From: a virus
Lineage: Duplodnaviria; Heunggongvirae; Uroviricota; Caudoviricetes
Virus record (IMG/VR): IMGVR_UViG_2529292922_000010
DNA: 64,000 nt
Strand: one strand, 5' to 3'
In this document: positions 9,417 to 64,000 of the stretch, piece after piece
Numbering within the stretch: the first letter of the stretch is position 1
How the letters are laid out: each line of letters starts with the position of its first letter
The notes under the pieces: generated by a model
Told to the model about the DNA's origin: nothing
What the model saw: the letters and a program-made list of their open reading frames with translations, nothing else
Databases searched by the model: none
Made by a program: the position numbers and the translations under genes

Positions 9417-10072
9417 CCTTCACAGTTGTAATCACTACAGCCTTCAAAATCATATGGGCTGTACTGCCAGGTTATTTTTCCGCAATGCGGACAATTCCAA
9501 CGCACCTTCCCGCTTCGCGACTTCTTTCTTCTGTTCTGCTCTTTCAACCAGTCAGGCATGACCAAACCTGCGCCCTGAACCATTGTTCTGCGGTTAAAGT
9601 TATTGATATTGAACGTCCGGCGCTTTGCTGCATCAGCAATGGAAAATGGCAACCAAACTATTCCTGGTTCGTTTTTGTTGACGACGCTAAAGATGGTCGC
9701 TTTACTGAAGTCATCTGTTGGCAATCCACCGTGTTGAAGCCAGTAAACATCGTTGCCGTTCCAGCTACCTTTTTTGTAGGCCACATACTCAGTGCAATCT
9801 GACTCAATCAGGCTTTCTGTAGGGATGTACTGGCAATCAACGTGCCACACAGCCATTGCATCCACACTATCGGCACAAACAGGCTGATCGATATCTCGCC
9901 CACAATTCCAGGCTTTTTGGGCTTCTTCCAGCGTGTAAATATGAGCGCGATCGATATCAGAACTGTAACCATTGCCGTTATGGCAATGGAATGAGGCGTT
10001 ATTACCCACAGTTTCACGCAAGCACATCATGTAAAAACGGTTACTCACTGGTTGCCCCCTGAATACGCTCAA
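9404..10072 (-). CDS. Hypothetical protein with Cys-rich C-terminus, 222 aa
   Basis: CPHCGK...CSDYNC at C-terminus. Confidence 0.5.
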   Translation of the reverse strand: MSVFRGQPVSNRFYMMCLRETVGNNASFHCHNGNGYSSDIDRAHIYTLEEAQKAWNCGRDIDQPVCADSVDAMAVWHVDCQYIPTESLIESDCTEYVAYKKGSWNGNDVYWLQHGGLPTDDFSKATIFSVVNKNEPGIVWLPFSIADAAKRRTFNINNFNRRTMVQGAGLVMPDWLKEQNRRKKSRSGKVRWNCPHCGKITWQYSPYDFEGCSDYNCEGWRE

Positions 10073-37801: not shown

Positions 37802-37938
37802 TTGGATTTTACCTTCCTCCCCTACTCACGAAAAAAATAAAAAAATTGCTTGTCACGAGAAAGTCAACAAGTGACTTTCAATAAAATCTCTTCCGAAAAG
37901 GGATTCACACAAGTGCCTTGTGTTTAAGGAAGAGTAAA

Positions 37939-47434: not shown

Positions 47435-47530
47435 ATCTGATTAGTAAATACACAACTGGATCTAATAACCTCTTTTTTTTAAAGGCGAAAATATGTACCC
47501 TAAATGAGTTATAAGGCAGGTGAGGTTATA

Positions 47531-48178
47531 ATGAGAAAACTATTACTACCGTTATTATTTATGGCTGGGACTGTTAATGCAGCATCAAGCGTAAAGGAGA
47601 TTTGTACCGATTATACGAAATACCTTGGGCACGTTTACGGCTTTGCTGTCAGTCAAGACGAATCCATGCGCAAGAAGTTACTGTCAGATATGAAACGCCT
47701 TAAACTTTCTGAAGCGATGGTGCAGCAAGAACTGTATAAAGTCGCAACCAACGAAAATGCTAAATATCAATATTCTCGCCTGTTAAATCCCGACGCAAAC
47801 GAGATCAATCGAAGCTCTTTCGATTATATGGTAAAGGCATGCGAAACCGCTCCTGATTTTGCTATTCCTAGCTGGGGTGTGCTGGTGGCGAGCAATGCCG
47901 TTAATAAAGAAGACGTTGGAAGAAATGGCATTGATTCAATCAGAAACTCACCGGGAATGCGCCATCAAAACGTTCAGGGTACGCTTGAAGAACGGGCCAG
48001 GGGGCCGGGTACAAACTCCCCAATGGGAAACCTCTCCCCGGAGGAATTGCAAGAGTATAACCAACGGATGGAGCAGTATGAGAAAGCTGCACGCGAAAAA
48101 ATGGAACAACAAAAAAACGGATCTCTTAATACTTTCCAGCAAGGTTTAAAAGCGCTTAATTTACCCTATGAATGGTGA
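47531..48178 (+). CDS. Secreted protein, 215 aa
   Basis: ATG 47531 with GGTGAGG RBS; signal peptide MRKLLLPLLFMAGTVNA; shares a motif with Sit. Confidence 0.5.
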   Translation: MRKLLLPLLFMAGTVNAASSVKEICTDYTKYLGHVYGFAVSQDESMRKKLLSDMKRLKLSEAMVQQELYKVATNENAKYQYSRLLNPDANEINRSSFDYMVKACETAPDFAIPSWGVLVASNAVNKEDVGRNGIDSIRNSPGMRHQNVQGTLEERARGPGTNSPMGNLSPEELQEYNQRMEQYEKAAREKMEQQKNGSLNTFQQGLKALNLPYEW

Positions 48179-48229
48179 ATATATGGTGGTTAACTAATTA
48201 AAATATTAATATCCAAAGGAGATAAATTA

Positions 48230-48706
48230 ATGCGCATCAAACGATTTTTACTAGTTATTGCTTTGCTTACTCCGTTTTCATCAATGGCAAATGTAAGCAA
48301 ATGGTCAACCGGCGAGACTCATGGTGTTCGTTCTTATGCTGTTTCCAGCAAAGATAATTATACGCTTACATTTGAGTGCGATGTTGGATTTAATAATACG
48401 GATCCCAATCAAGTAGGAACACGACTACTCACTCTCATGAAAACAGAACCTGGCGGTGAGTCATTTGATGCTAAAAAAGAACAAATAACGCTGAAAGTTG
48501 GTGATGATGAATATCCTATCAGTTCTATCGGTTCCTCTGTGGGTGATAGTTACTGGTATGGTTTTTGGTCAGATACCCCTGATATGGAAGTTAAAACATT
48601 CGATGCATACGTAGACGGAAAAAAAATCGCAACATTTACGCTACGTAAGGCCGCAGAGCTTTTCAACGCGGCACCTGAAGATGGCTGCCTGAAGCGCGCA
48701 AAATGA
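48230..48706 (+). CDS. Secreted protein, 158 aa
   Basis: Signal peptide MRIKRFLLVIALLTPFSSMA; AAGGAG RBS. Confidence 0.5.
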   Translation: MRIKRFLLVIALLTPFSSMANVSKWSTGETHGVRSYAVSSKDNYTLTFECDVGFNNTDPNQVGTRLLTLMKTEPGGESFDAKKEQITLKVGDDEYPISSIGSSVGDSYWYGFWSDTPDMEVKTFDAYVDGKKIATFTLRKAAELFNAAPEDGCLKRAK

Positions 48707-48740
48707 CCTGTCACAAATGACTACTCGTAGAATCGGTTAA

Positions 48741-49331
<591 letters not shown>

Positions 49332-49341
49332 GGGGGCTGAT

Positions 49342-49953
49342 ATGGGGCTTAATGTTGCTTCAGTAAAGTCTTATGTATCTTCGGCATTAACGACGACATT
49401 ATTTGGCTCCGGCGTTGGTGAGCGGGAAGTTGGTAAGCTGACGTCAATCATCATGAACAAAATGCTGTTCGCGCAAGGATGGCAGTTCTCTGTCGAAGTT
49501 GATGGTCTGGAGGGGGCAGACTTCTTTGCTAAAGACATTACCTACCACGATTACAGCATCGAATATGAAACGATTAAAATCGGCGGAGGGAATATCCTTC
49601 AGCCAACGGAGCGTTCGCCTGGGCAGATAACAATGATGGTCAGGGATACCGTTGATGGCCTCGTTTTGGACTGGTTTAAGACGGCAAAAGGTCGGGTGAT
49701 CAATCCGGACGGTACCGGGAATATACCGTCTAAATATTTGCTCAATGTGCGTATTTATCGGTTGCTGTCCTCCGGTTTAACCAAACTGGAAAATGAGATG
49801 ACGGTATTCCCGGTCACTACCGGCGATGTCACCTATGCGCGGGATCAGGTTACGGAATTTAAGTCATTCCCAATGACCTTCGCATTGCACAGCACGTTTA
49901 ACCAATCCTCAAGTTCTTTAGCTTCCCTTCTGGGCTTTAGTTTTTCTCTTTGA
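49342..49953 (+). CDS. Hypothetical late protein, 203 aa
   Basis: ORF in late operon. Confidence 0.5.
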   Translation: MGLNVASVKSYVSSALTTTLFGSGVGEREVGKLTSIIMNKMLFAQGWQFSVEVDGLEGADFFAKDITYHDYSIEYETIKIGGGNILQPTERSPGQITMMVRDTVDGLVLDWFKTAKGRVINPDGTGNIPSKYLLNVRIYRLLSSGLTKLENEMTVFPVTTGDVTYARDQVTEFKSFPMTFALHSTFNQSSSSLASLLGFSFSL

Positions 49954-49967
49954 ATTAAGGAGCAAGG

Positions 49968-50849
49968 ATGCTTTTACCTCTTTTCCCGCTACCATCGCGG
50001 CCAACTGAATTGATCCAGTTCCGTCAGCCAAATATTGCTGATGCGATGCGTTTCAACTCGATAACACCGGAGGAACAAGAACAACAGACAACGGCGTATT
50101 TAAAAGCCTTGCTGGCTGAACCCGCGAAATATGATCCCCTGACATGGACGGCGCAGGACCGGATTACCGCGTTATGGTGGATATTTACTGGCTCCCGTGA
50201 AACACCGGTCGAGACATTCACCTACACCTGTAAACATTGCGGTAAAGAGCATTATTACGATTGCGATATGAATGCTCTGGCTGAAGATATCCAGGTCCTG
50301 GAAGTGGAACCGTTCATTGACGATATTGAGGTGTCTGTAGAGGGCGTGCCTTATCAATGGCGTATCGTGCCGCTTGATGGTTGGGCAATGGAAATGCTGG
50401 AGATGCGCCGTGCAGCATTGCCACCTGAAGACGACGCGGAATTCAAAGAAGCGATCGTTGATTTGCGTTTTTGGGAATTCGCTTATCAGTGTGAACTTTA
50501 TAACGATGTTAGCGGTACTCGTGAAGAGCAGGCTGAGCGTCGTTATGAAACGATCAAACGGATGGCCATTGATACTGAATTTATGAAGCTGGCGGCACAC
50601 ATCCGGCTGGCTCATGAAAAGCTCGAACATGGTTTACCGTGCTACATCGATAAAGGCGAAATGCGTCTTCGTCTCCCGCCGCACAAATGCCCAAACCAGG
50701 ATACAAAGGAGTCCACAGAGGGTGCGTATACCCGTCTGTGGGTGCCCTTTCGGGCTACCGACTTCATTCCACAGGTGGGGATTGAAAAGCTATCAGACCT
50801 TAGTGTCCAACCTGGTTTTGTATGGGGGTATACCGATTCAGGACGCTGA
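49968..50849 (+). CDS. Hypothetical late protein with CxxC pairs, 293 aa
   Basis: AAGGAG RBS; CKHCGK...CDM; immediately upstream of sit. Confidence 0.5.
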   Translation: MLLPLFPLPSRPTELIQFRQPNIADAMRFNSITPEEQEQQTTAYLKALLAEPAKYDPLTWTAQDRITALWWIFTGSRETPVETFTYTCKHCGKEHYYDCDMNALAEDIQVLEVEPFIDDIEVSVEGVPYQWRIVPLDGWAMEMLEMRRAALPPEDDAEFKEAIVDLRFWEFAYQCELYNDVSGTREEQAERRYETIKRMAIDTEFMKLAAHIRLAHEKLEHGLPCYIDKGEMRLRLPPHKCPNQDTKESTEGAYTRLWVPFRATDFIPQVGIEKLSDLSVQPGFVWGYTDSGR

Positions 50850-50930
50850 AAGGCTCACTGAATCCTATGCGTTTTTCCTGTTGGAGAAACTGGAAGAAAA
50901 ACTTAAACCGAAGCGGTAGGCGATAAGATC

Positions 50931-53900
50931 ATGGAAAGAAAAAACGCCAACATTGACGATGTGATAAGGACGGTTGAAACCGCCAGCGCAAAAGAGCTGG
51001 AAGAGCTTGCAGGTATTCGGGAAGCCGTTGAAGATTTGAAAGGTGGGCGAGTTGCTACAGTTGATCCTGTCTCTCGCAGTGTGTCGGCATTAAATCGCAC
51101 AATCGAAAATTCCCGGCCAGACTTTGTGGCCAATGCGCCATCAGTGGACCCTATTGTTGAGGCAATGAAACGGCTTAATTTAGGGGACGTTTCTCGTGTA
51201 GTTCAGGAGGATGTTGCTCTACAGGAACCGCAGGCCAAATCAACTACGCGAAAGGGTAAAAAACGACGCAAGAAGGCTATAACAGAAGATGTAAAGGCGC
51301 AACGGACCGAAGCAGCCGAACACGCTCGCGAAATGTTCGGTCAAAAAGGCGGTGCGCAAAAAAGCCAAAACCAACGCGATGCGCGTGGTCGTTTTATTGG
51401 AAAGTCAGGGAGTAAGGCCGCAGCGGAAGATGCCCGTGCTGAACGTGCTGAAAAGGCCAGGCGCAAAGAGGATGATGAGCGTCTAAATGCTGAATCAGGT
51501 TTATTAAAAAAACTGTCAAAAGTAGCTGAAGGCATAGGTAACCCTTCAGAGACTCGTGCCGTCGATGCGTTAGGTTATGCCGTTGCTGGTCCATTGTGGG
51601 CAGCAGGGAAGGAGCTTGGCGGGATATCAAAAGAAGTTGGTGGATCGCTTAATGGTGCCAGAAAGTCTATTGCCGATGTGATTCGTGGCAATGACGATAA
51701 CAGCCGTAGAAAAGGTTTTTTTAGGCGTAAATCGCAAAATAGTGCCGATGTCGTTCAGGTTAACACCCAAAAACGGACGGTTCAGGAACTTCAGGAGCAG
51801 ACCAGCGAAATTAAAGAGGGCAATGACAAGATTCTCCGCGCCCTTGATCAGATAGCCAAAAACACCGGGAAAAAGAAGGGCGGCTTGCTGTCCAAACTAT
51901 TTAGCCTGTTAGGGAAGGGGGCCGGTGGCGTCGCGTCGTTGTTAATGGGGCGTGGCATGCTGAAAAAAGCTGGAGCACTCGCTTTTGGCGCTCTGGGGGC
52001 AAAGAAACTTGTAGGAATGCTACGCGGTGGTGGCAAGAAGACTCTCGCCCATGAAGGCGGAGATTTGGCTGCCCGGGCAGCAGGTAAACTTGGATTAAAG
52101 GCAGTTGGTAAAGGGGCGTTACGCGCAATTCCCCTAGTCGGCACAGTGGCTGGAGGTATTTATGATGCGGTAACCGGTTGGAATGATACAGAAGCGCAAC
52201 GTCGAGCGTTTGGGCTTAAATCAGGACAAGATCCATCATTCCAGCAAAAAGCCGCTTATACGTTAGCTAATGTTCTTGATATGGGGGGACTGGTATCTGG
52301 TATTAGCAGCGCCATTGGTGAGGTTCTCAAATCACTTGGATTTGAGGATATCGGCAATATGTTGCAATCATTTTCGACGGAAAGTATTGCCCAGGCCATT
52401 GATAGTGGGATTACCAACTTAGAAACATATATTTCTAACCTTGGCGACACCATTTCTACCAAGTTCGATGATTACACAGCAAAGATTGGTGATGCTGTTT
52501 CAGCATGGTTTAGCGATACATCTAATAAGCTGCTTGAAAAGCTGGATGCCATCAAAGACTTCTTTACTGTCGATAACCTGAAACAGGTTTTCAGTGATGC
52601 AATTGATAGTGCAATTGATTTCATTAAGAACCCAGGGAAACATATTAAAGAGGCGGCTGGTAATATTTGGGATGGGGTTAAAAATTTCCCCGGTAAAGCA
52701 TTAGATGCAGCGGTTGATGCCGTTAAAAATACCCCTGCGGCAATGATTGTATCAAAAATACCCAATCCGATCGGCGAGGCTAATGCGAAAGAAATCACTC
52801 CAGAGTTAAAAGCTCCGGTTAATAGCCACCAGGAGACATCTGATTCTAAAACTGAATCCGATGCCAAACAGACTAATATTGTTACCCGCGTGATAAATGC
52901 GGCACTGGACACGGCGAAAGATAGCAATAAAACAGTTAAAGAAACTGCTAATCAGATTATCAATGCAAATGCCGTAGAAACGGGCAATAGCGCGTTGCAG
53001 AAAATTGATAAAGCTATTGGTCAAAATAGCTCGTCATCATCGTCGCTTAATACCACTGGCACCAGGAATGACATTCAGAAAGCTGCGGATACCTACAACA
53101 ATGGCAACTTGGATGTAAAAGTCGGAAGTCTTGGCGCTGAAGGTAAGGCAAATCTCGATAAGTTGGCTCCGTATTTTGCCGAACTAGAGAATAAATACGG
53201 TCTTCCAGAAGGCACTCTTTACGCGATTGCTGCAACTGAATCTGGTGGTAATCCGTATGCAAAATCCCAAACCGGTGCTCTGGGGATGTTTCAGTTCACG
53301 GGGATTGCTCGTGAAGAGACTGGCTTAGCTGAAGGTGAATCGTTTGATCCTGTGAAATCGGCAGAAGCTGCGGCTCTTCTCATGAGCAAATATCTGAAGC
53401 AAGCCAATGGAGACTTAAACGAGGCCATCACTGCATATAATGCTGGGTTTGGCACTATCAATAAGTGGAAAAAAGGCACAGGTGACTTATCGAAAGAAAA
53501 CCGTGAGTACGCGATCAAGGTCAATACTCATCGTGCTCGCTATTTAGGTGGTGAAATCTATACACCTGGAGCAGGAGCACAGGGTGGGGCGCAATATGGA
53601 GTGAGGGGACCACTGCCTGATAACGCTGTTATCGATCAGTCTACTGGCCTGGCGTTTACCCCTGGTGATAGCCCGTTTGAGAAAGGCGGTCTGGTAGACA
53701 AAATTGGCAATGCTGTTGGCGTTAACGATCTGGTCAACAAATTCATGAATGGCCGGGGTATGCGTCGGGAAGTCGTTCAGGGAACGCTCGAAGAACGTGC
53801 ACGAGGGAAGGGGACCGCAACAGCAGCTGGCAATGTGTATGTTGATACTCCGATGCCAGTTGAAGAGGCGCGTCCGGTGGCCAGCAACTCAAGTTACTTT

Positions 53901-54323
53901 GACCAACTCGGCGCACAAATGGGGATTGATGGACTATTTGATAAACTCCGCAACTCGCCGGGGATGCGGAAAAATAATGCGCCTGAACCAGCCTCCACGT
54001 CCCAGGTGACGACTGCCGCCAACGATTTGCAGCAACCAACCGGTCGTATGCAGATAGACGGACAGGTTATTAGTGACCTTGGCGGCTCCGGTGCCAAGCC
54101 GACAATGCAGTTGGCTGATAATACCGTTTCACTTGATGGTGAAACGAAGCGGCTGTTTGCGCAGATGACCTCATTGCTTGCCAGGATTGAAGAGCACACT
54201 AAAGACTCGGCGAAAGGCCAGGGAACTGTCGTAAAGGTCAGCACGCCTCAACCGGGCGTTATGCGCACGGTGCCACTGTCAATTGATGATCCGTTGATGA
54301 ATGACTACGCGAGAGTTGATTGA
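50931..54323 (+). CDS. sit: Sit-like tape-measure / injection transglycosylase
   Basis: 1130 aa; internal lytic transglycosylase motif (AIAATESGGNPYA...GALGMFQF...YNAG). Confidence 0.8.
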   Translation: MERKNANIDDVIRTVETASAKELEELAGIREAVEDLKGGRVATVDPVSRSVSALNRTIENSRPDFVANAPSVDPIVEAMKRLNLGDVSRVVQEDVALQEPQAKSTTRKGKKRRKKAITEDVKAQRTEAAEHAREMFGQKGGAQKSQNQRDARGRFIGKSGSKAAAEDARAERAEKARRKEDDERLNAESGLLKKLSKVAEGIGNPSETRAVDALGYAVAGPLWAAGKELGGISKEVGGSLNGARKSIADVIRGNDDNSRRKGFFRRKSQNSADVVQVNTQKRTVQELQEQTSEIKEGNDKILRALDQIAKNTGKKKGGLLSKLFSLLGKGAGGVASLLMGRGMLKKAGALAFGALGAKKLVGMLRGGGKKTLAHEGGDLAARAAGKLGLKAVGKGALRAIPLVGTVAGGIYDAVTGWNDTEAQRRAFGLKSGQDPSFQQKAAYTLANVLDMGGLVSGISSAIGEVLKSLGFEDIGNMLQSFSTESIAQAIDSGITNLETYISNLGDTISTKFDDYTAKIGDAVSAWFSDTSNKLLEKLDAIKDFFTVDNLKQVFSDAIDSAIDFIKNPGKHIKEAAGNIWDGVKNFPGKALDAAVDAVKNTPAAMIVSKIPNPIGEANAKEITPELKAPVNSHQETSDSKTESDAKQTNIVTRVINAALDTAKDSNKTVKETANQIINANAVETGNSALQKIDKAIGQNSSSSSSLNTTGTRNDIQKAADTYNNGNLDVKVGSLGAEGKANLDKLAPYFAELENKYGLPEGTLYAIAATESGGNPYAKSQTGALGMFQFTGIAREETGLAEGESFDPVKSAEAAALLMSKYLKQANGDLNEAITAYNAGFGTINKWKKGTGDLSKENREYAIKVNTHRARYLGGEIYTPGAGAQGGAQYGVRGPLPDNAVIDQSTGLAFTPGDSPFEKGGLVDKIGNAVGVNDLVNKFMNGRGMRREVVQGTLEERARGKGTATAAGNVYVDTPMPVEEARPVASNSSYFDQLGAQMGIDGLFDKLRNSPGMRKNNAPEPASTSQVTTAANDLQQPTGRMQIDGQVISDLGGSGAKPTMQLADNTVSLDGETKRLFAQMTSLLARIEEHTKDSAKGQGTVVKVSTPQPGVMRTVPLSIDDPLMNDYARVD

Positions 54324-54679
54324 TGGCCAACAATAACGAAATTGATCCTTTGCTGACGCTGGAGTTATCCGGCGTAAAAACGTATGAGTCCCAGGAGGAG
54401 GCCTGGGGCGCTCGTTTATATGAGTGGCTAAACACTTATCAGGGTGAGGTATACGGAGATCCGTCATGGGGCAATGTTTTACCGCAGTTTAAACACGAAC
54501 CGACCAACTTGTCGCATGTTCAAATTGCGGTTGAGGCAATGCTTTTGCAAAAACTGACGGTAGATTTACCCGACATACCGATTTCTGGCTTGTCAGTAGC
54601 CGAGGGAGATGCTTTTGATAAGTTGAAAATATCCATTCGTATCAGGGATATAACTATCACACAGGACGTGGTGCTATGA
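54320..54679 (+). CDS. Baseplate wedge gp25/gpW-like protein, 119 aa
   Basis: Size and position right after tape measure; start overlaps sit stop. Confidence 0.5.
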   Translation: MMANNNEIDPLLTLELSGVKTYESQEEAWGARLYEWLNTYQGEVYGDPSWGNVLPQFKHEPTNLSHVQIAVEAMLLQKLTVDLPDIPISGLSVAEGDAFDKLKISIRIRDITITQDVVL

Positions 54680-56109
54680 GTAAAACAACACCTACTAAAG
54701 ACAGTATTCGTGCAGAGTTTGAAGAGCTTGTCGAGAAAGATTCATTCTGGTCGAAGTTTGTCGGCTCTCAATTTGTCTCGATGCTGACATTGTTTATTAC
54801 CCAGATTGTCTACAGGTGCTTTCAGTATGCCGATGCGGCGCTGGCTGAAGGCTTTATATCGACCGCGACGCGGCGTTCTTCTATCCTGGCAGCGGCAGAA
54901 ACGAATAGTTACGTTGGTACCAAGCCAACACCGTCATCGGGGATGATTGAGATCACCGCCACAAGTGAAGATGCCCCAGCGGTAATCCCCAAAAATATGC
55001 CTTTAATATCTGACGACCAGTATCCTTACATGACTATGGATGTATGCAGGTTGGTTGACGGCACCGGTACGGTAGAAGTGGCACAGTTGGAAATCCAGGA
55101 GGTGACATATACCGTTACGGCAGCCAAAGAATTTCTGGAAGTCGTGTTATCAAAGGCTCTCACTGCTGTCTGCTATAAGCTGGAAGTATTCGTGACGACC
55201 GATGGTAAGACCACGCAGTGGTCTTCCAGCACTATGTTCCGGTTAGCCGGTAGTAAAAGCCAGGTCTACGTTGAGTTTTATAAACCATCCGAGCAGTTGG
55301 GGGTTCGATTCGGTGATGGGCTAATTGGGCAAATACCGCCAGAAGGCTCGACCATTACGCTTAAGGTATGGTGCACCAACGGCGATATAACCCTGGTTGC
55401 TGGCCAAAACCTGACGCCTGTCGATTCTGCGGCTAATTTAGCTAATTTGATTTCAGTTAAGACAACGACACCTATAACCGCAGGTACCGATGCCGAAACA
55501 ACGGAGATCACACGTAACCGTGCACAATATTACCTTGCCTATGATGATCAGGTCGTATGGGGCGGGGACTATACGTATTTTCTGGTGCGTAACATCCCGG
55601 GACTGTCCTGGGTAAAGGCATGGGGCGAAGGCCAGCAAGAGAAATTAGATGGTGCTTATAATGTTCGGAATATCAATAAGATATTTATTTCAGGATGGCA
55701 TCCAAACAAAAGCCAGTCAGAGCTTGAAGAAATGATCCTGGCTGCCTTTAAGAAGGTGCCGAATGAGTTGAACAAGAAATTCTCGTATAAAGAGGTCAGA
55801 AAACTCCCCTTTAAGATCACCATCACTGGGCGGATATCGGCAAGCCTGACCATTGAGAACGTGACTGATGAGCTGAAGTCGGCACTGGAAACAAAATTTG
55901 GGCGTGACTCAACTTTCTTTGATCCGAACCGTGTCGGCAAGTACATCCTAATCAAGAAAAAAGACGTTTGGGCATTTATCGAAACGCTGGGTTATTTCCG
56001 CGACTTTTATCTGGAATTTGTCGAGTGGAATGAGTCCAACGGCTTTTACGATTTCGTTTATCTGGATACAGAAAACTCCACCTTTAATATTTCGTATGAG
56101 GAGGAGTGA
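54676..56109 (+). CDS. Baseplate J-like protein, 477 aa
   Basis: Size and position; overlaps neighbours by 4 nt. Confidence 0.5.
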   Translation: MSKTTPTKDSIRAEFEELVEKDSFWSKFVGSQFVSMLTLFITQIVYRCFQYADAALAEGFISTATRRSSILAAAETNSYVGTKPTPSSGMIEITATSEDAPAVIPKNMPLISDDQYPYMTMDVCRLVDGTGTVEVAQLEIQEVTYTVTAAKEFLEVVLSKALTAVCYKLEVFVTTDGKTTQWSSSTMFRLAGSKSQVYVEFYKPSEQLGVRFGDGLIGQIPPEGSTITLKVWCTNGDITLVAGQNLTPVDSAANLANLISVKTTTPITAGTDAETTEITRNRAQYYLAYDDQVVWGGDYTYFLVRNIPGLSWVKAWGEGQQEKLDGAYNVRNINKIFISGWHPNKSQSELEEMILAAFKKVPNELNKKFSYKEVRKLPFKITITGRISASLTIENVTDELKSALETKFGRDSTFFDPNRVGKYILIKKKDVWAFIETLGYFRDFYLEFVEWNESNGFYDFVYLDTENSTFNISYEEE

Positions 56110-56945
56110 TGCAGCGTTCCTGGTTTAATAACCGGCTTACATCAGCTAAGCAAAAGTCATTACTTTATAAATCATTGGCTGATTTGGTTCAGTCAATGAT
56201 GGACACCTTTGTTGACCCATGGTTGGAGCGAATTACCAACCGGAAGTCTATTTTCTCCATGAGCAAGGAGGATCTGGAGACTAGGACAAATGAACTTGGC
56301 CAGTTTTTTACTATCAGAACGTCGAATTCATCTTCCGTTCCGATGTTGTTACAACAGCGGTTTGATGAGATCCATTTTAAGGGTACTGAACGCCCTATAA
56401 ACCAGACAATTTATCGCGAATTTAACGGTATATCGGTTTTATGGGATCCCATATATGCTCCGGTGGACTTTGAACGTCATCCCTATGGCACGGTCCTGAT
56501 TCCAGAAAGCACACTGGAAACCACCGGCGGCACATTCGGCGAGATGTTTCTGACTTCCAGAGGAATGATCAGTATTCCCATAAACGACCTGGCCCGGACA
56601 ATGGGTATTACTGGAACGATAGATCAGTCCGCAATTACAGAAGAAATTCTCAGAAAGTTTAATCAGTTCGTAAAGCCTCTACTGCCACTGCATATAGTGT
56701 TTGATGGGCTTACGCTCTATTTGTCGGTTGTTGTAAATGAACAGGCCGACATGATCACTTTGAATGAGATTTCTGATACCGAAAAAGCATTCTGCTGGTT
56801 TGAAACTTCGGATACAACTTCGCTTACTGAAGTTACGTCGATTAACGCCCCGATCACTGCAACGCCGGGCGGCACTATTGTGAAAGCAACGCCTACGTTT
56901 GATCGCACCCGCGCAGATGATTTGCTGTTGGATAGCGATGCGTGA
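56106..56945 (+). CDS. Baseplate/tail-fibre-associated protein, 279 aa
   Basis: Translationally coupled to upstream gene. Confidence 0.45.
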   Translation: MMQRSWFNNRLTSAKQKSLLYKSLADLVQSMMDTFVDPWLERITNRKSIFSMSKEDLETRTNELGQFFTIRTSNSSSVPMLLQQRFDEIHFKGTERPINQTIYREFNGISVLWDPIYAPVDFERHPYGTVLIPESTLETTGGTFGEMFLTSRGMISIPINDLARTMGITGTIDQSAITEEILRKFNQFVKPLLPLHIVFDGLTLYLSVVVNEQADMITLNEISDTEKAFCWFETSDTTSLTEVTSINAPITATPGGTIVKATPTFDRTRADDLLLDSDA

Positions 56946-57023
56946 CAATCACCCCGTCCGCAGGGCGGGGTGACAAGTTACTTATCTTACAATGAGGCTT
57001 CACAACATTGATTAGGGAAAATC

Positions 57024-57458
57024 ATGTCTGACGTCTCAACAAACCTCTATAAGAGTCAGTTGTTGGACTATTACTATCAGCGGCGCGCTGAATCGTCCAT
57101 TAACAAAGGCTCTCGATTTTTAATCAGCAAGGCCGTTTTCGGTACCAGTTCACTGGTTACTAAGAAAGGAGATGGCACTTATGAGATTGGAGAACTGCCA
57201 AAGGCTTTCGATCTGGCAGAACTGACCAGTCAATTTTGCACCATCAACCTCGTCCCAACCTACTCAGGCGGGATAATTACTGTCCGAATGGACCTTGATC
57301 AAAGTCAGTTGCAGGAAGGGAAAAACTACCCATTCAACACTCTGGTTGTTCTGGATAACGAGAATAAGCCAATCGCCATTATTTGTGTCCAGGAAGACTC
57401 GCTGTATGTGGGCAAAACATATACCGCAGTTATGGCCATAAACTCGACTACAGCATAA
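57024..57458 (+). CDS. Small tail protein upstream of fibre gene, 144 aa
   Basis: Position of P1 gene R. Confidence 0.45.
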   Translation: MSDVSTNLYKSQLLDYYYQRRAESSINKGSRFLISKAVFGTSSLVTKKGDGTYEIGELPKAFDLAELTSQFCTINLVPTYSGGIITVRMDLDQSQLQEGKNYPFNTLVVLDNENKPIAIICVQEDSLYVGKTYTAVMAINSTTA

Positions 57459-57469
57459 GGATATGCTTG

Positions 57470-59326
57470 ATGAATGACGTTACAGTTGTTACATCGGTTA
57501 CTTACCCATCACCCGAGTCGTTGGCTCTGGTGGCTGATGTGCAATACCACGAACCATATCTGTCAGCCGCTCTAAACCGAAAATTCAGGGGAATTGTTGA
57601 CCCGGGATTTTATGCTGGTTTCTTGCCTAAGCCTGGCGGTGGGATGAACCTGTTAATCACCTCAGTGGATGGAGATAAAACCGCTGGCGCGGCGTCAGTG
57701 GATATTGGTGAATTCTACCAGGTAACTATTCAGCATCGTAAGGATATCTCTCTTGCACTTAACGCAGGCAAGAAATATGCAATTGTGCTGAAGGGAAGAT
57801 ACCTTCTTGGAGAAGATACCTATCAGGTTAATACCGCGTCACATATTCATGCAGCTGAATTTGTTGCCAGAACCTATACCGATTCATATCAGTTAGGTGA
57901 TGGGGAACTGCTGGTTTGTACGGTGAATATCCCTGCTGGCGTATCTACCATTACTCAAGAGATGATTGATACATCCGAGCGTATCAACCGCACGATCGGC
58001 ATTGATATTTCAGACTCTGTAACCAGTACCAGAAGTGATGTTGCTGCGAGTTCGCTGGCAGTTAAAAAAGCCTACGATCTGGCGAAAAGCAAGTATACGG
58101 CGCAGGATGCAACCACGACACAAAAAGGGATAGTTCAGCTCAGTAGCGACACCAACAGCACTTCTGAAACATTAGCTGCAACTCCAAAAGCGGTTAAAGC
58201 TGCATACGATCTAGCAGCCGGAAAGGCACCATCCAGTCATACACATCCCTGGAATCAGATCACTGGTGTGCCAACAGCTTCATTGACAGCGAAAGGCATC
58301 ACTCAGCTCAGTAGTGCCACTAACAGTACGTCCGAAGTGCTGGCCGCCACACCGAAAGCTGTCAAGGCTGCATATGATTTGGCTAACGGGAAGTATACAG
58401 CCCAGGATGCAACCACGACACAAAAAGGGATAGTTCAGCTCAGTAGCGACACCAACAGCACTTCTGAAACATTAGCTGCAACTCCAAAAGCGGTTAAAGC
58501 TGCATACGATCTAGCAGCCGGAAAGGCACCATCCAGTCATACACATCCCTGGAATCAGATCACTGGTGTGCCAACAGCTTCATTGACAGCGAAAGGCATC
58601 ACTCAGCTCAGTAGTGCCACTAACAGCACGTCTGAAGTGCTGGCCGCCACACCGAAAGCTGTCAAGGCTGCATATGATTTGGCTAATGGAAAGCAAGCGG
58701 CAGACGCTACGCTCACTGCTCTAGCGGCACTAGCTACAGCAGCAGATAAACTCCCTTATTTCACAGGTGTTGATCGTGCCGCGTTAACTGCATTGACAAG
58801 TGTTGGACGCGCCATTCTTGGTAAGACCAGTATTCAGAGCGTTCTTGATTACCTTGGTTTAGGGGAAGGCTCGGCGCTGCCCGTTGGTGTACCTGTTCCA
58901 TGGCCCTCAGCCACACCGCCAACGGGGTGGCTGAAATGCAATGGTGCAGCATTTTCTTCTGAAAAGTACCCAAATCTGGCAAAGGTTTACCCTACTAATA
59001 AATTGCCGGATCTACGGGGCGAATTTATTCGCGGCTGGGATGACGGGCGGGGGATTGACTCTGGCCGTAATTTATTATCTGCACAGAATGATGCAATTCA
59101 GAATATTGTTGGTTCTTTCGGGCGTACTCAGCTTTTTAGAGATGTACTTAGTTCAGGGCCATTTAGTCAACATGGTCAAGTATTATCTACAGGCCTAAAG
59201 GAAACGGAAATTATTGAGGGTTATGGCTCTTATAACTGGACATTCGACGCCTCTCGCTCAGTTCGTACAGCATCTGAAACCCGCCCCCGTAATATTGCAT
59301 TTAATTACATCGTAAGGGCGGCATAA
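57470..59326 (+). CDS. Tail fibre protein (constant shaft + currently expressed cassette 1)
   Basis: 618 aa from ATG 57470; repeated GIxQLSS.TNSTSE.LAATPKAVKAAYDLA motifs; receptor-binding cassette 1 occupies 58853-59326. Confidence 0.8.
   Translation: MNDVTVVTSVTYPSPESLALVADVQYHEPYLSAALNRKFRGIVDPGFYAGFLPKPGGGMNLLITSVDGDKTAGAASVDIGEFYQVTIQHRKDISLALNAGKKYAIVLKGRYLLGEDTYQVNTASHIHAAEFVARTYTDSYQLGDGELLVCTVNIPAGVSTITQEMIDTSERINRTIGIDISDSVTSTRSDVAASSLAVKKAYDLAKSKYTAQDATTTQKGIVQLSSDTNSTSETLAATPKAVKAAYDLAAGKAPSSHTHPWNQITGVPTASLTAKGITQLSSATNSTSEVLAATPKAVKAAYDLANGKYTAQDATTTQKGIVQLSSDTNSTSETLAATPKAVKAAYDLAAGKAPSSHTHPWNQITGVPTASLTAKGITQLSSATNSTSEVLAATPKAVKAAYDLANGKQAADATLTALAALATAADKLPYFTGVDRAALTALTSVGRAILGKTSIQSVLDYLGLGEGSALPVGVPVPWPSATPPTGWLKCNGAAFSSEKYPNLAKVYPTNKLPDLRGEFIRGWDDGRGIDSGRNLLSAQNDAIQNIVGSFGRTQLFRDVLSSGPFSQHGQVLSTGLKETEIIEGYGSYNWTFDASRSVRTASETRPRNIAFNYIVRAA
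58091..58690 (+). repeat. Near-perfect tandem duplication (2 x 300 bp) in fibre shaft
   Basis: 58091-58390 and 58391-58690 nearly identical; encodes duplicated 100-aa shaft module. Confidence 0.8.
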
Positions 59327-59813
59327 AAACGTTGGTTTGGGGGAAGGCTCAGCATTGCCCGTTGGCGTGCCCGTTCCGTGGCCCTTAGAAACACCGCCAA
59401 CGGGGTGGCTGAAATGTAACGGAGCAGCATTTTCTTCTGAAATGTATCCCAAACTGGCAAAGGCCTACCCCACCAATAAATTACCGGATTTACGGGGAGA
59501 ATTTATTCGCGGCTGGGATGATGGGCGCGGGGTGGATGCGGGACGTGCTTTATTGAGCATTCAGACAGGAATGCTGGAAAAGCACCGACATATTGTTGTA
59601 GCCAATGATGGTTACGACACAAAAGATGAATGGGAGCTGGCGACAATTTTCAAAAAAACATACACACAAGGACGGGGGCTTGATGCCTCAAATACAGGAG
59701 GGAATTTGATTCCATCACCGACACTTCATTCTCGAGGGAGTATTGGTAATACTGGCGGGAGTGAAACCCGTCCACGAAATATCGCATTTAATTACATCGT
59801 AAGGGCGGCATAA
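59327..59813 (+). other. Silent tail-fibre C-terminal cassette 2 (intact frame)
   Basis: Begins with junction AAACGTTGGTTTGGGGGAAGG, ends ETRPRNIAFNYIVRAA-stop; 5' 200 bp identical in type to inverted cassette 9. Confidence 0.7.
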
Positions 59814-60290
59814 AAACGTTGGTTTAGGGGAAGGCTCGGCGCTGCCCGTTGGTGTACCTATTCCATGGCCCTCAGCCACACCGCCAACGGGGTGGCTGAA
59901 ATGTAACGGTGCAGCATTTTCTCTGAAAAGTACCCAAATCTGGCAAAGGTTTACCCCACTAATAAATTGCCGGATCTACGGGGCGAATTTATTCGCGGCT
60001 GGGATGACGGGCGGGGGATTGACTCTGGCCGTAATTTATTATCTGCACAGAATGATGCAATTCAGAATATTGTTGGTTCTTTCGGGCGTACTCAGCTTTT
60101 TAGAGATGTACTTAGTTCAGGGCCATTTAGTCAACATGGTCAAGTATTATCTACAGGCCTAAAGGAAACGGAAATTATTGAGGGTTATGGCTCTTATAAC
60201 TGGACATTCGACGCCTCTCGCTCAGTTCGTACAGCATCTGAAACCCGCCCCCGTAATATTGCATTTAATTACATCGTAAGGGCGGCATAA
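59814..60290 (+). pseudogene. Cassette 3, frameshifted near-copy of cassette 1
   Basis: 1-bp deletion (TTCTTCTG to TTCTCTG); variable region identical to cassette 1. Confidence 0.65.
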
Positions 60291-60764
60291 AAACGTTGGT
60301 TTGGGGGAAGGCTCAGCATTGCCTGTTGGCGTACCTGTTCCGTGGCCCTCAGCCACTCCGCCAACGGGGTGGCTGAAATGTAACGGAGCAGCATTTTCTT
60401 CTGAAAAGTACCCAAATCTGGCAAAGGCTTACCCTACTAATAAATTGCCGGATTTACGCGGTGAATTTATTCGTGGCTGGGATGACGGACGTGGTGTGGA
60501 TGCCGGGCGACAATTATTATCTTCACAGGGGGAGTGCAATAAGAAATATTGAGGGGTTCGCAGATGGCGGGATTGGCATGTCTTTTGATGCAATCAGAGG
60601 GCGTTTTTATGATGCAGGAACACGATCTGCGAGAATGCCGAATAACACAACTGATATAGGCAAACCGATGACCTTGGATTCGACGCCTCTCGTGTCGTGC
60701 CAACAGCTAATAGAAAACCGTCCTCGTAATATTGTCCTTTAATTATATCGTAAGGGCGGCATAA
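60291..60764 (+). pseudogene. Cassette 4, multiply frameshifted copy of the cassette-10 type
   Basis: Premature stop at 60550 and further indels; intact counterpart is the inverted cassette at 63825-64000. Confidence 0.65.
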
Positions 60765-61277
60765 AACGTTGGTTTAGGGGAAGGCTCGGCGCTGCCCGTT
60801 GGTGTACCTGTTCCATGGCCCTCAGCCACACCACCAACGGGGTGGCTGAAATGCAATGGTGCAGCATTTTCTTCTGAAAAGTACCCAAATCTGGCAAAGG
60901 TTTACCCAACGTTAAAATTACCTGATTTACGCGGTGAATTTATCCGTGGCTGGGATGATGGGCGCGGGGTGGATGCTGGCCGCGCTTTGCTTAATTGGCA
61001 GCCACACACAATTTTGGACCATGCACACTATATGGAATTATGGACAGGGGACGGACTCGCCGCAGGAAGTGCACGGGAAGGCGTAAATCCAGGAATACTA
61101 GCTACATACGGTGACGGGGGAATAGTTAAAACGGACGAACCCGGTCATAAGGTGCCTTCCTCACTACGAGCTATTAGCTCTCGTAGTGTTAAACGTTATG
61201 GTGAAATTAGTGGAAATGTAGGTACAGAAACTCGCCCTCGCAACGTTGCATTTAATTACATCGTAAGGGCGGCATAA
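60765..61277 (+). other. Silent tail-fibre C-terminal cassette 5 (intact frame)
   Basis: Open frame from junction to RPRNVAFNYIVRAA-stop. Confidence 0.65.
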
Positions 61278-61790
61278 AAACGTTGGTTTAGGGGAAGGCT
61301 CGGCGCTGCCGTTGGTGTGCCTGTTCCGTGGCCCTCCGCCACACCACCAACGGGGTGGCTGAAATGTAACGGAGCAGCATTTTCTTCTGAAAAGTACCCA
61401 AATCTGGCAAAGGTTTACCCAACGTTAAAATTACCTGATTTACGCGGTGAGTTTATCCGTGGTTGGGATGATTCGAGAGGGATTGATACAGGGCGTTCAT
61501 TGCTAAGTGGTCAGACTGCAACATTTATTCGTACAGCTTTGCAGGATTATTACGGTGTCGATCTGACTACTAATGTCAAAGTAGGTATCGCTTATGCTAC
61601 TGCTGATTCTGTTATAACTGTTGGAAACCCTGCTAATCCTAAAGCAGGAGATAATAGCGATTATGTTCCAGCATCATCAGATAACTCCATAACAGGCACT
61701 CAAAGGACGGCAGAGGATAATTTTACCGGGGCATGGATATCAATGCGCCCCCGCAACGTTGCTTTTAATTACATTGTAAGGGCCACATAA
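61278..61790 (+). pseudogene. Cassette 6, frameshift at 5' conserved region
   Basis: 1-bp deletion (GCTGCCCGTTGG to GCTGCCGTTGG); rest open. Confidence 0.6.
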
Positions 61791-62230
61791 AAACGTTGGT
61801 TTAGGGGAAGGCTCGGCGCTGCCCGTTGGTGTACCTGTTCCATGGCCCTCCGCCACACCACCAACGGGGTGGCTGAAATGTAACGGAGCAGCATTTTCTT
61901 CTGAAAAGTACCCAAATCTGGACAAAGGTTTACCCCACTAATAAATTGCCGGATCTACGGGGCGAATTTATTCGAGGTTGGGATGATGGACGAGGTGTGG
62001 ACAATGGGCGAGCATTATTAAGCAGCCAAGAGGCTACAAACTTTTCTCAGCGTGCCGGAAATATAGGCGATGGTGCAGGGCACGCAATTAATTTTCATGA
62101 TGGCATCGTCGGAAATCAGCCAGGATTTTCACGATTTAATTTCACCAGTAACTCTGTAGGTGATGGTATAAATTTTGTTGCTGTCAGGCCGCGAAATATC
62201 GCATTTAATTACATCGTAAGGGCGGCATAA
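61791..62230 (+). pseudogene. Cassette 7, frameshift in 5' conserved region
   Basis: 1-bp insertion (CTGGCAAAGG to CTGGACAAAGG). Confidence 0.6.
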
Positions 62231-62737
62231 AAACGTTGGTTTAGGGGAAGGCTCGGCGCTGCCCGTTGGTGTACCTATTCCATGGCCCTCAGCCACACCG
62301 CCAACGGGGTGGCTGAAATGCAATGGTGCAGCATTTTCTTCTGAAAAGTACCCAAATCTGGCAAAGGTTTACCCAACGTTAAAATTACCTGATTTACGCG
62401 GTGAGTTTATCCGTGGCTGGGATGATGGGCGAGGGATTGACTCTGGTCGCTCTATTTTAAGCGAGCAAGGATATGCAACGGAGGATCATGCTCACGGATT
62501 ACCGTCAAAATCAACCGTAGCAACTGACCGCTCAATTAATTTCTACTTTGACGAGGCATGGGCTACTAGTGGTAATACGGGAGTTATCAGATGGGGGAAC
62601 ACAAGCGATGCAGGATTGCCAGCCCCTAATTATGGAACTTTTAAAACATATAAACAGTCCGTAGCTAATTTAGGTACTGCTGGCTTAGAAACCCGCCCTC
62701 GTAATATTGCATTTAATTATATTGTGAGGGCGGATTA
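62231..62737 (+). other. Silent tail-fibre C-terminal cassette 8 (intact frame)
   Basis: Open frame from junction to RPRNIAFNYIVRAD-stop. Confidence 0.65.
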
Positions 62738-62743
62738 ATTATA

Positions 62744-63355
62744 TCAACTGGCTGTAGAAAGTTGTTTTTCAGGCCAGTTGAGAACTGGTGCCGTGGTTAA
62801 ATCCATCGCGTTCAGCTCGTCTATATAATCTAGCACGGAGTTAAGCTGCGTGGTTTCTGCCTGCGTCAACTTCCGTCCAGCCCGTAATTTCAACTGAATC
62901 AGACTAATGGAATCCATCGCAGTATCAATCAATGACTGACGTTTTGTTTCTGCTGCCTCTACAGCTGCACTATGTTGAGCCTCAGTATCAACCACCCATT
63001 TCTCTCCATCCCATTTGTCGTATGGTGTTAGCGGGGCGATAGTGGTTGTATTTTCCGGATAGTCACCCAACACCGTGATTTCTTCGGGATTCCCAGTGTC
63101 AATGCTATAGACAGTTTCGCCACGATGATCTGGCACATACTCCCATGAACTTAAATCCTCTGAACGGAGAATCGCATAACCTGCTTTATGTGAGCCTGGA
63201 GCATCCAAACAAGAATTTGCCGGAATACCAACGCCAACAGCAAGATATTCAGTTGATGCAGAAATATATTCCCGATTACCACCATCATAGTTATAAACGA
63301 TAATGTTTCCTGCCTGTATGGCTATAAGTTCGCTATTTAATATCGCATTATCCAT
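62744..63355 (-). CDS. Tail-fibre assembly (Tfa/U-type) chaperone
   Basis: 203 aa with Tfa-family pattern; start overlaps stop of inverted cassette 9; convergent with cassette 8. Confidence 0.7.
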   Translation of the reverse strand: MDNAILNSELIAIQAGNIIVYNYDGGNREYISASTEYLAVGVGIPANSCLDAPGSHKAGYAILRSEDLSSWEYVPDHRGETVYSIDTGNPEEITVLGDYPENTTTIAPLTPYDKWDGEKWVVDTEAQHSAAVEAAETKRQSLIDTAMDSISLIQLKLRAGRKLTQAETTQLNSVLDYIDELNAMDLTTAPVLNWPEKQLSTAS

Positions 63356-63824
63356 TATGCTGCTCTCACAATATAATTGAAGGCAATGTTACGTGGGCGG
63401 GTTTCATTCCCCCCAGATAACTCCGTTCTGTATTGACTGGTAAATTTACCATTAATCGCTCCTTGCCGGACGGCGTTATCTGTCGACAACAGACTATCCC
63501 CCCCTCTGTCATTTGGCACCAATACCGTGTTATCCCACGCGTCCCATGACCGAATATTATGATAATGACTTCCTGTTAACCACCCCTGTATGCTTAAGAT
63601 GACCCTTCCCGCATCCACACCTCGCCCATCATCCCAACCACGGATAAACTCACCGCGTAAATCCGGTAATTTATTGGTGGGGTAGGCCTTTGCCAGTTTG
63701 GGATACATTTCAGAAGAAAATGCTGCACCATTGCATTTTAGCCAGCCCGTTGGTGGTGTTTCTAAGGGCCACGGAACGGGCACACCAACAGGCAGTGCAG
63801 AGCCTTCCCCCAAACCAACGTTTT
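63355..63824 (-). other. Inverted tail-fibre C-terminal cassette 9 (intact)
   Basis: Minus-strand GEGSALPVGVPVPWPLETPP...ETRPRNIAFNYIVRAA; same junction motif at its 5' end. Confidence 0.7.
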
Positions 63825-64000
63825 TATGCCGCCCTTACGATATAATTAAAGGCAATGTTACGAGGACGGTTTTCATTAGCTGTTGGCACGACACGAGAGG
63901 CGTCGAATCCAAGGTCATCGGTTTTGCCTATATCAGTTGTGTTATTCGGCATTCTCGCAGATCGTGTTCCTGCATCATAAAAAGCCCCTCTGATTGCATC
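63825..64000 (-). other. Inverted cassette 10, 3' part only (window ends)
   Basis: Minus strand ends ...ENRPRNIAFNYIVRAA-stop; intact version of decayed cassette 4. Confidence 0.6.

Follow-up and report, generated by a model that had tools for sequence, protein, structure and literature searches.

How a single tail fibre assembly gene can serve a tail fibre gene with many alternative ends, when it lies antisense to that gene, is the question raised by this locus. In the 64,000-nucleotide stretch of DNA analysed here (the window), the only tfa gene is located at 62744-63355 on the minus strand, and the tail fibre gene S is read from the plus strand at 57470-59326. At least ten cassettes, candidates for the 3' end of S, are placed around tfa. 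The locus is probably a multiple-inversion tail fibre array of the p15B Min type, carried by a P1-like phage-plasmid and equipped with one generalist tfa whose expression would depend on its orientation. A system of the p15B Min or e14 Pin kind is already known.

The region is that of a P1-like phage-plasmid, in which the order of the tape-measure, baseplate, gp16, R and S genes is collinear with P1. Gene R, for the tail fibre R protein of P1, is an ORF at 57024-57458 on the plus strand (PF26881, Phage_P1_tail_fiber_R, is given for the identical gene in two related sequences, L085 and L086), and the first 1.2 kb of the query, which covers R and the 5' portion of S, was ~95% identical to P1 and P7. 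The S protein has Pfam Phage_fiber_2 repeats followed by a Collar domain, a tip of ~150 aa at the end of the protein. According to a frame check, S consists of a constant part, Sc (57470-58853), whose DNA is ~95% identical to that of P1 Sc, and of cassette 1 (58856-59326, type D), which continues it in frame. Sc also contains a 300-bp tandem duplication (58070-58669, 96% identical), which extends the Phage_fiber_2 repeat region, and the length of S varied widely across relatives. Positions 47470 to 64000 are identical to the terminal 16.5 kb of the draft contig AIEX01000036.1 (GCA_000249095.2, the same sequence as L086). The window therefore stops where this contig stops, inside cassette 10, and neither the rest of the array on the right nor the invertase gene is in view.

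The tfa gene encodes a protein of 203 aa with a Pfam Caudo_TAP domain (PF02413, E=1.2e-28, residues 78-197); PF28596, Caudo_TAP_N, is also given in a record of the same protein. Its ATG overlaps the stop codon of the inverted cassette 9, and its own stop codon lies 5 bp from the stop codon of the direct cassette 8 on the plus strand. A GAGAG element resembling a Shine-Dalgarno sequence is found 8-9 nt upstream of the ATG. By its domain and its position after a fibre-tip cassette the ORF is a bona fide Tfa, of the functional class of lambda Tfa, Mu U and T4 gp38, for which chaperone activity is predicted. With a profile made from the sequences of Tfa, U, U', TfaP and TfaE, no second homologue was found in all six frames of the window (next best match, E=0.07), and a sequence search gave no relative of Tfa in the PDB. 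The repeats, the start/stop overlap and the profile search thus bear out what the earlier note had described from the letters: one tfa on the minus strand directly after inverted cassette 9, convergent with eight direct cassettes and, in the present isomer, antisense to the S operon.

A motif scan of the window for the 16-nt core TTGGTTT(A/G)GGGGAAGG found eight copies on the plus strand, at 58854 (within S), 59332, 59819, 60296, 60769, 61283, 61796 and 62236, and one copy on the minus strand, at 63818. Each copy opens a cassette of ~0.47 kb with a conserved N-terminal collar and the end ...RPRNIAFNYIVRAA-stop, and the C-terminal motif ETRPRNIAFNYIVRAA is common to all cassettes. The N-terminal part of the cassettes matches the collar regions of T4 gp37 and gp12 and a 'short tail fiber' chain, 9cuy.

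Downstream of S, six silent direct cassettes, 2 to 7, occupy 59332-62230 on the plus strand, each preceded by one of the six sites from 59332 to 61796. Cassette 2 (type B, from the site at 59332) and cassette 5 (type C, from the site at 60769) are intact. Cassette 3 (59821-60290, D-like), cassette 6 (61285-61790, I-like) and cassette 7 (61798-62230, F-like) are frameshifted, and cassette 4 (60298-60764, H-like) has two frameshifts. Cassette 8 (62238-62738, plus strand, type E) is intact, stands tail-to-tail with tfa and is 83% identical to StfE of e14. On the minus strand beyond tfa lie cassette 9 (63355-63816, type A), which is intact, and the 3' part of cassette 10 (63824-64000, type H), which is cut by the contig end. 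Cassettes 1, 2, 5, 8 and 9 are thus in frame and intact from site to stop, and the other four of the nine complete cassettes carry frameshifts. In its variable part, cassette 3 is a 99% copy of cassette 1; cassette 4 repeats cassette 10 in degraded form (96-97% identity), with substitutions as well as indels. The frameshifts could be real decay or the product of a chimeric assembly of mixed isomers. They had been considered as proof of misassembly, a view that was softened by the annotated frameshifted or partial cassettes found in complete plasmids.

The crossover site within S (58854-58869, plus strand, from the motif scan) reads GATTACC TT GGTTTAGGGGAAGG and resembles cixL and cixR of P1. 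With their left halves, the nine sites of the window read ...AAACG TT GGTTTAGGGGAA; P1 cixL is ATCCTAAACC TT GGTTTAAGAGAA and cixR is TCCAATACC TT GGTTTAAGAGAA. Judged by sequence, the window sites are close to P1 cix, being imperfect dyads of ~26 bp with a central dinucleotide, related to cix, gix and hix.

Because the sites are located at the 5' ends of the cassettes, the array is divided into single-cassette segments between direct sites and one central segment between inverted sites. The central segment (62238-63816) contains cassette 8, reading rightwards, then tfa and cassette 9, both reading leftwards. It is bounded by a left site at 62236-62251 (plus strand) and a right site at 63803-63818 (minus strand, from the motif scan), which have a 24-bp context in common. 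Hin-family invertases recombine inverted sites. It also follows from the position of the sites that cassettes on the A side, that of cassette 9, are co-oriented with tfa and that those on the E side, that of cassette 8, are convergent with it. Inversions move cassettes between the two sides of tfa and flip the central segment relative to Sc. When 62238-63816 alone was flipped in silico, tfa came to lie on the plus strand, at 62699-63310, with the stop codon of S 3.4 kb upstream of it; cassette 1 was still fused to Sc, and cassettes 2-7 and cassette 9 stood between S and tfa on the same strand.

To see which orientations occur in nature, we compared 34 related arrays, drawn from IMG/VR contigs found by the Tfa protein, from complete plasmids of E. 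coli and Salmonella, and from L085. Cassettes were typed by their variable regions, and an array was called ON when tfa was co-oriented with S and OFF when it was opposite. The orientation rule ('+' on the A side of tfa, '-' on the E side) had no violation among the 204 cassettes of the 34 arrays. tfa was ON in 18 arrays and OFF in 15, in a comparison of different strains rather than of molecules from one culture. Types D, B and C, which are those of cassettes 1, 2 and 5, and also types F, H and I, were present on both sides of tfa. ON arrays include L083 (Sc-I>H>D>G>A>tfa>) and L093 (Sc-C>D>F>B>K>A>tfa>). Type E alone was always convergent with tfa, in 17 of 17 arrays. Type A was directly upstream of tfa in most arrays; it was replaced there by a K-type cassette in L094 (NZ_CP163450.1) and by an O-type cassette in L010, thus the linkage of A and tfa is not absolute. 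The cassettes were intact in 187 of 204 cases and disrupted in 17, complete assemblies included.

These arrays qualify the claim that no inversion can ever bring tfa downstream of cassettes 1-8. For cassette 8 the claim stands, as its type was convergent with tfa wherever it was found; for cassettes 1-7 it is contradicted by the flip of the central segment in silico and by natural isomers such as L083 and L093. The doubt whether the array is invertible at all did not survive the finding of both orientations of tfa and of cassette types on both sides of it. The earlier note was right about a single tfa: 33 of the 34 arrays have just one, L015 being the exception. The second, direct tfa that it had named as a refuter was found neither in the window nor in L085, a complete relative on a 94.5-kb contig whose S protein is identical to that of the window. 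The order in L085 is Sc-D > H > B > I > K > C > E > < tfa < A < F, with one tfa and nine intact cassettes; only the two inverted cassettes stand between tfa and the invertase gene. L085 shows tfa antisense to S together with intact cassettes, and the antisense state is therefore real in nature. A tblastn search with Tfa over 72,556 plasmids gave 616 places in 590 records, nearly all with one tfa, and similar arrays were found in 586 PLSDB plasmids.

The array called L015 (8058-11164) has the palindromic arrangement B> <tfa <A|A> tfa> <B, in which two A copies overlap head to head. It was the sole 'two-tfa' array, and is probably a chimera in which the assembly joined the central segment in its two orientations. 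A second prophage family, represented by IMG/VR contigs within L009-L021, has the same multi-cassette, single-tfa design (Tfa 81-84%, Sc ~61%, invertase 97%), and its tfa-convergent cassette is type B, not E. Among the ~20 arrays with visible Sc, the central segment adjoined Sc more often than random shuffling suggests: A was fused or adjacent to Sc in ~5, and E or its equivalent was fused in ~3. This excess may reflect site preference or sampling. In L001 (CP047090.1, pS13-1), ISApl1-mcr-1 is located at 9970-13722, inside an Sc-fused type E cassette beside tfa, so this colistin-resistance plasmid has a truncated expressed fibre tip.

Wherever that end of the array was visible (L085, L001, L081-L095), an invertase gene was located beside the last site; the window itself stops in cassette 10. 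The L085 invertase (16377-16949) has 190 aa with Resolvase (PF00239) and HTH_7 (PF02796) domains and begins 66 bp beyond the last site; the gene is at 18206-18778 in L001, and cin is at 2161-2721 in P1 (L084). In systems of this kind the 5' part of the invertase gene holds a recombinational enhancer that depends on Fis. The 5' 100 nt of the L085 gene aligned with P1 cin, where an enhancer is annotated at nt 18-89, and with e14 pinE, at a mean column identity of 91% in the three-way alignment. In arrays of the p15B Min type the invertase gene is co-oriented with S and read away from the array, like pinE of e14.

The orientation of tfa would matter through the promoters that can reach it. The late promoter LPs (AAGTTACTT-N4-TACAAT; AAGTTACTTATCTTACAAT) is located at 56975-56993 on the plus strand, upstream of R, and is identical to the annotated LPs of P1. 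A motif scan found no other P1 late-promoter motif on either strand within 57000-64000, and none in or reading into the array in the window and five relatives; near the arrays of the relatives, the late promoters were LPs, upstream of R, and LPdar, beyond the invertase gene, and each of them points in the direction of S. Two further matches to the motif with one mismatch each, divergent from one another, were seen far from the array at 37869-37887 (plus strand) and 37949-37931 (minus strand). In ON isomers, tfa would thus be a sense gene at the end of the LPs-R-S late operon, expressed by read-through of the silent cassettes. In OFF isomers such as that of the window, tfa has no known promoter, and little or no Tfa would be made from the phage's own late promoters. 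Fibre assembly in OFF isomers may then be impaired or rely on another source of Tfa, which is the least certain step. A single inversion of 62238-63816 would be enough to switch tfa on with cassette 1 remaining fused to S.

An independent promoter for tfa was also sought. The late-promoter scan was empty, the sigma-70-like matches in the array numbered 9 against 11.5 expected in shuffled sequence, in consensus scans that can miss real promoters, and terminator-like matches in a consensus scan were not above chance. Taken together, these scans are uninformative and do not amount to a negative result.

Would one Tfa suit all of these tips? T4 gp37 needs gp38, and Tfa of lambda can replace gp38. 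In simple prophages, Tfa proteins 77-81% identical to that of the window are encoded directly after cassettes of various types (B, C, D, E/N, G, I and others), and the start of tfa again overlaps the stop of the cassette. Like these, e14 has StfE followed by TfaE, which is 77% identical to the window Tfa, and StfP with its own TfaP. Conservation of Tfa is even along its length across the different cassette partners. From tfa of the same family after so many cassette types in simple prophages and e14, the even conservation, the common C-terminal motif, and K and O cassettes standing in for A, we infer that the single Tfa would act as a generalist chaperone for the whole cassette set.

Against a generalist chaperone it may be argued that most cassettes fold without Tfa, which would be needed only for the translationally coupled cassette A, or would be a non-essential cap or modifier. 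In most arrays type A is the cassette next to tfa on its upstream side, and the stop codon of the one overlaps the start codon of the other; this fits, as does the conservation of type E without tfa in cis; some phage fibres are also known to work without a cognate chaperone, and Tfa of Mu remains on the fibre tip (PMC10579305). Yet in simple prophages each of types B, C, D, E/N, G and I has a tfa of this family directly after it, and the E-like StfE of e14 has TfaE, which weakens the argument; K-type (L094) and O-type (L010) cassettes can take the place of A upstream of tfa, and all cassettes have the same C-terminal motif and a gp37-like collar. Among the options that the earlier note had offered for cassettes with no chaperone downstream, folding independent of Tfa is therefore the less likely, and as a general account of the array we hold it quite improbable. 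It is rather unlikely, too, that tfa is expressed in either orientation, from an unrecognised promoter in cassette A or in the conserved 5' region of the cassettes, or that Tfa comes in trans from resident prophages, such that OFF isomers are fully functional. Some cassettes, A among them (63764-63735, 9/12), do contain weak sigma-70-like matches that point in the sense direction, and the GAGAG element before the ATG would allow independent translation, but matches of this kind were no more frequent than in shuffled sequence, and no P1 late-promoter motif was found on the tfa strand within 57000-64000. Supply in trans is favoured by the abundance of close tfa homologues in E. coli (598 viral-contig matches; a 3-kb array/tfa query was matched by 1790 of 5426 genomes); resident tfa genes are, however, normally repressed, and their presence depends on the host. 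Expression free of orientation would also agree with the natural isomers of different strains, 15 OFF to 18 ON, and with purifying selection on type E, a type that was never co-oriented with tfa.

A different objection is that the arrangement in the window is in part an assembly artefact, in which mixed isomers were joined into a chimeric draft contig, and that the row of eight cassettes and the orientation of tfa may correspond to no real molecule. The window ends at the end of a draft contig, inside a cassette; of its nine complete cassettes, four carry frameshifts, and two of these four duplicate others (cassette 3 duplicates cassette 1, and cassette 4 duplicates cassette 10); and a palindrome such as that of L015 is the kind of structure that such chimeras give. 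On the other hand, the OFF orientation is also present in L085, with the identical S and nine intact cassettes, and in the complete plasmids L090, L091 and L094. Disrupted cassettes occur in complete assemblies too, and cassettes 4 and 10 differ by substitutions, beyond indels. An artefact of this sort is possible for the window, if doubtful, and the probable reading is still a Min-type array with a single generalist tfa.

Type E poses a puzzle for that reading. It was intact in 17 of 17 arrays and had a pN/pS of ~0.10 at a pS of 0.18, like type A (0.15) and others. By this measure type E is under purifying selection though it is never found with tfa in cis, and this does not sit easily with the view that E-tipped fibres cannot work unless Tfa is made in cis. 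Likewise, ~45% of natural arrays were OFF, which would mean a large cost in infectivity if OFF isomers were defective. The ratio of ON to OFF arrays was rejected as functional evidence, since flipping in the plasmid state would equilibrate it whatever the fitness of the phage. Three readings of the puzzle remain. Some Tfa may be made independently of orientation or come from resident prophages; Tfa may be dispensable or modulatory for some tips; or OFF may be a state of low infectivity, with cassettes kept intact by selection in other contexts. Folding independent of Tfa, Tfa in trans and a low-activity state, the three possibilities that the earlier note had listed, all still apply to OFF isomers.

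A further idea, which we consider improbable, is that the orientation of tfa is a second binary switch, independent of the choice of cassette, by which tips are expressed with or without Tfa, E being Tfa-free and A Tfa-bound. If it were true, and if Tfa stays on the tip as in Mu or gates assembly, there would be about twice as many adsorption phenotypes as cassettes; alternatively, the switch would serve as a built-in bet-hedge that turns infectivity on and off. Neither the switch nor the bet-hedge was found in a limited literature search, whose scope did not extend to the original Min papers.

The Min system of p15B from E. coli 15T-, attributed to Sandmeier, Iida and Arber (1990-1992), reportedly has six sites and six alternative ends that give 240 isomers. 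Four single-cassette segments and one two-cassette segment give 5! x 2 = 240 isomers, matching the figure reported for p15B. Like p15B Min as described, the window array has a P1-related backbone with LPs-R-Sc, several sites at which a single constant 5' part is joined to different 3' parts, a central segment of two cassettes beside segments of one, and, in its relatives, an invertase gene co-oriented with S. Unlike p15B, the window has at least ten cassettes as against six, four of them frameshifted and two of them duplicates. The Tfa of NZ_MG288678.1 is 99.5% identical to that of the window; this record we take to be pMCR_SCKP-LL83, the plasmid of PMC5786510. For that P1/P7-like plasmid, a region 99% identical to p15B min was reported, with a single tfaE listed beside pin (PMC5786510).

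The Pin P segment of e14 in E. coli K-12 has close counterparts of cassette 8 and of the window Tfa in StfE and TfaE, the same GLGEGSALPVG junction at the crossover site, and pinE co-oriented with the fibre gene. e14, however, has two cassettes, each with its own tfa (stfP-tfaP and tfaE-stfE), whereas in arrays of the window type the E cassette no longer has a tfa, and a single one is shared by about nine cassettes. The C segment of P1 with Cin and the G segment of Mu with Gin are alike in that Sc is fused to alternative Sv parts by a Hin-family invertase; P1 has the same backbone and similar sites. They differ in having two sites that work as a simple flip-flop, Sv parts that are large and unrelated, and a chaperone, U or U', for each orientation, and P1 cin is convergent with S, reading into the silent Sv'-U'. 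The window array has many sites, small collar-type tips and a single tfa. The design of P1, Mu and e14, in which each alternative end is followed by its own tfa or U (two each in P1 and e14), was thus not found here, where one tfa accompanies at least ten cassettes. The shufflon of R64 puts alternative C-termini on pilV by means of Rci, a tyrosine recombinase, and only its inverted sites recombine. It resembles the window array by analogy, in that multiple inversions place alternative C-terminal segments on one constant gene; it uses a tyrosine and not a serine recombinase, has different sites, acts on a pilus adhesin and not a phage fibre, and has no chaperone gene.

Min arrays are now seen in hundreds of P1-like phage-plasmids, among them carriers of mcr-1. 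In the reading corrected here, the central invertible segment carries the chaperone gene, which would serve the whole cassette set. The fate of isomers with antisense tfa, and that of the E tip, bears on the prediction of host range and on the engineering of P1-like vectors.
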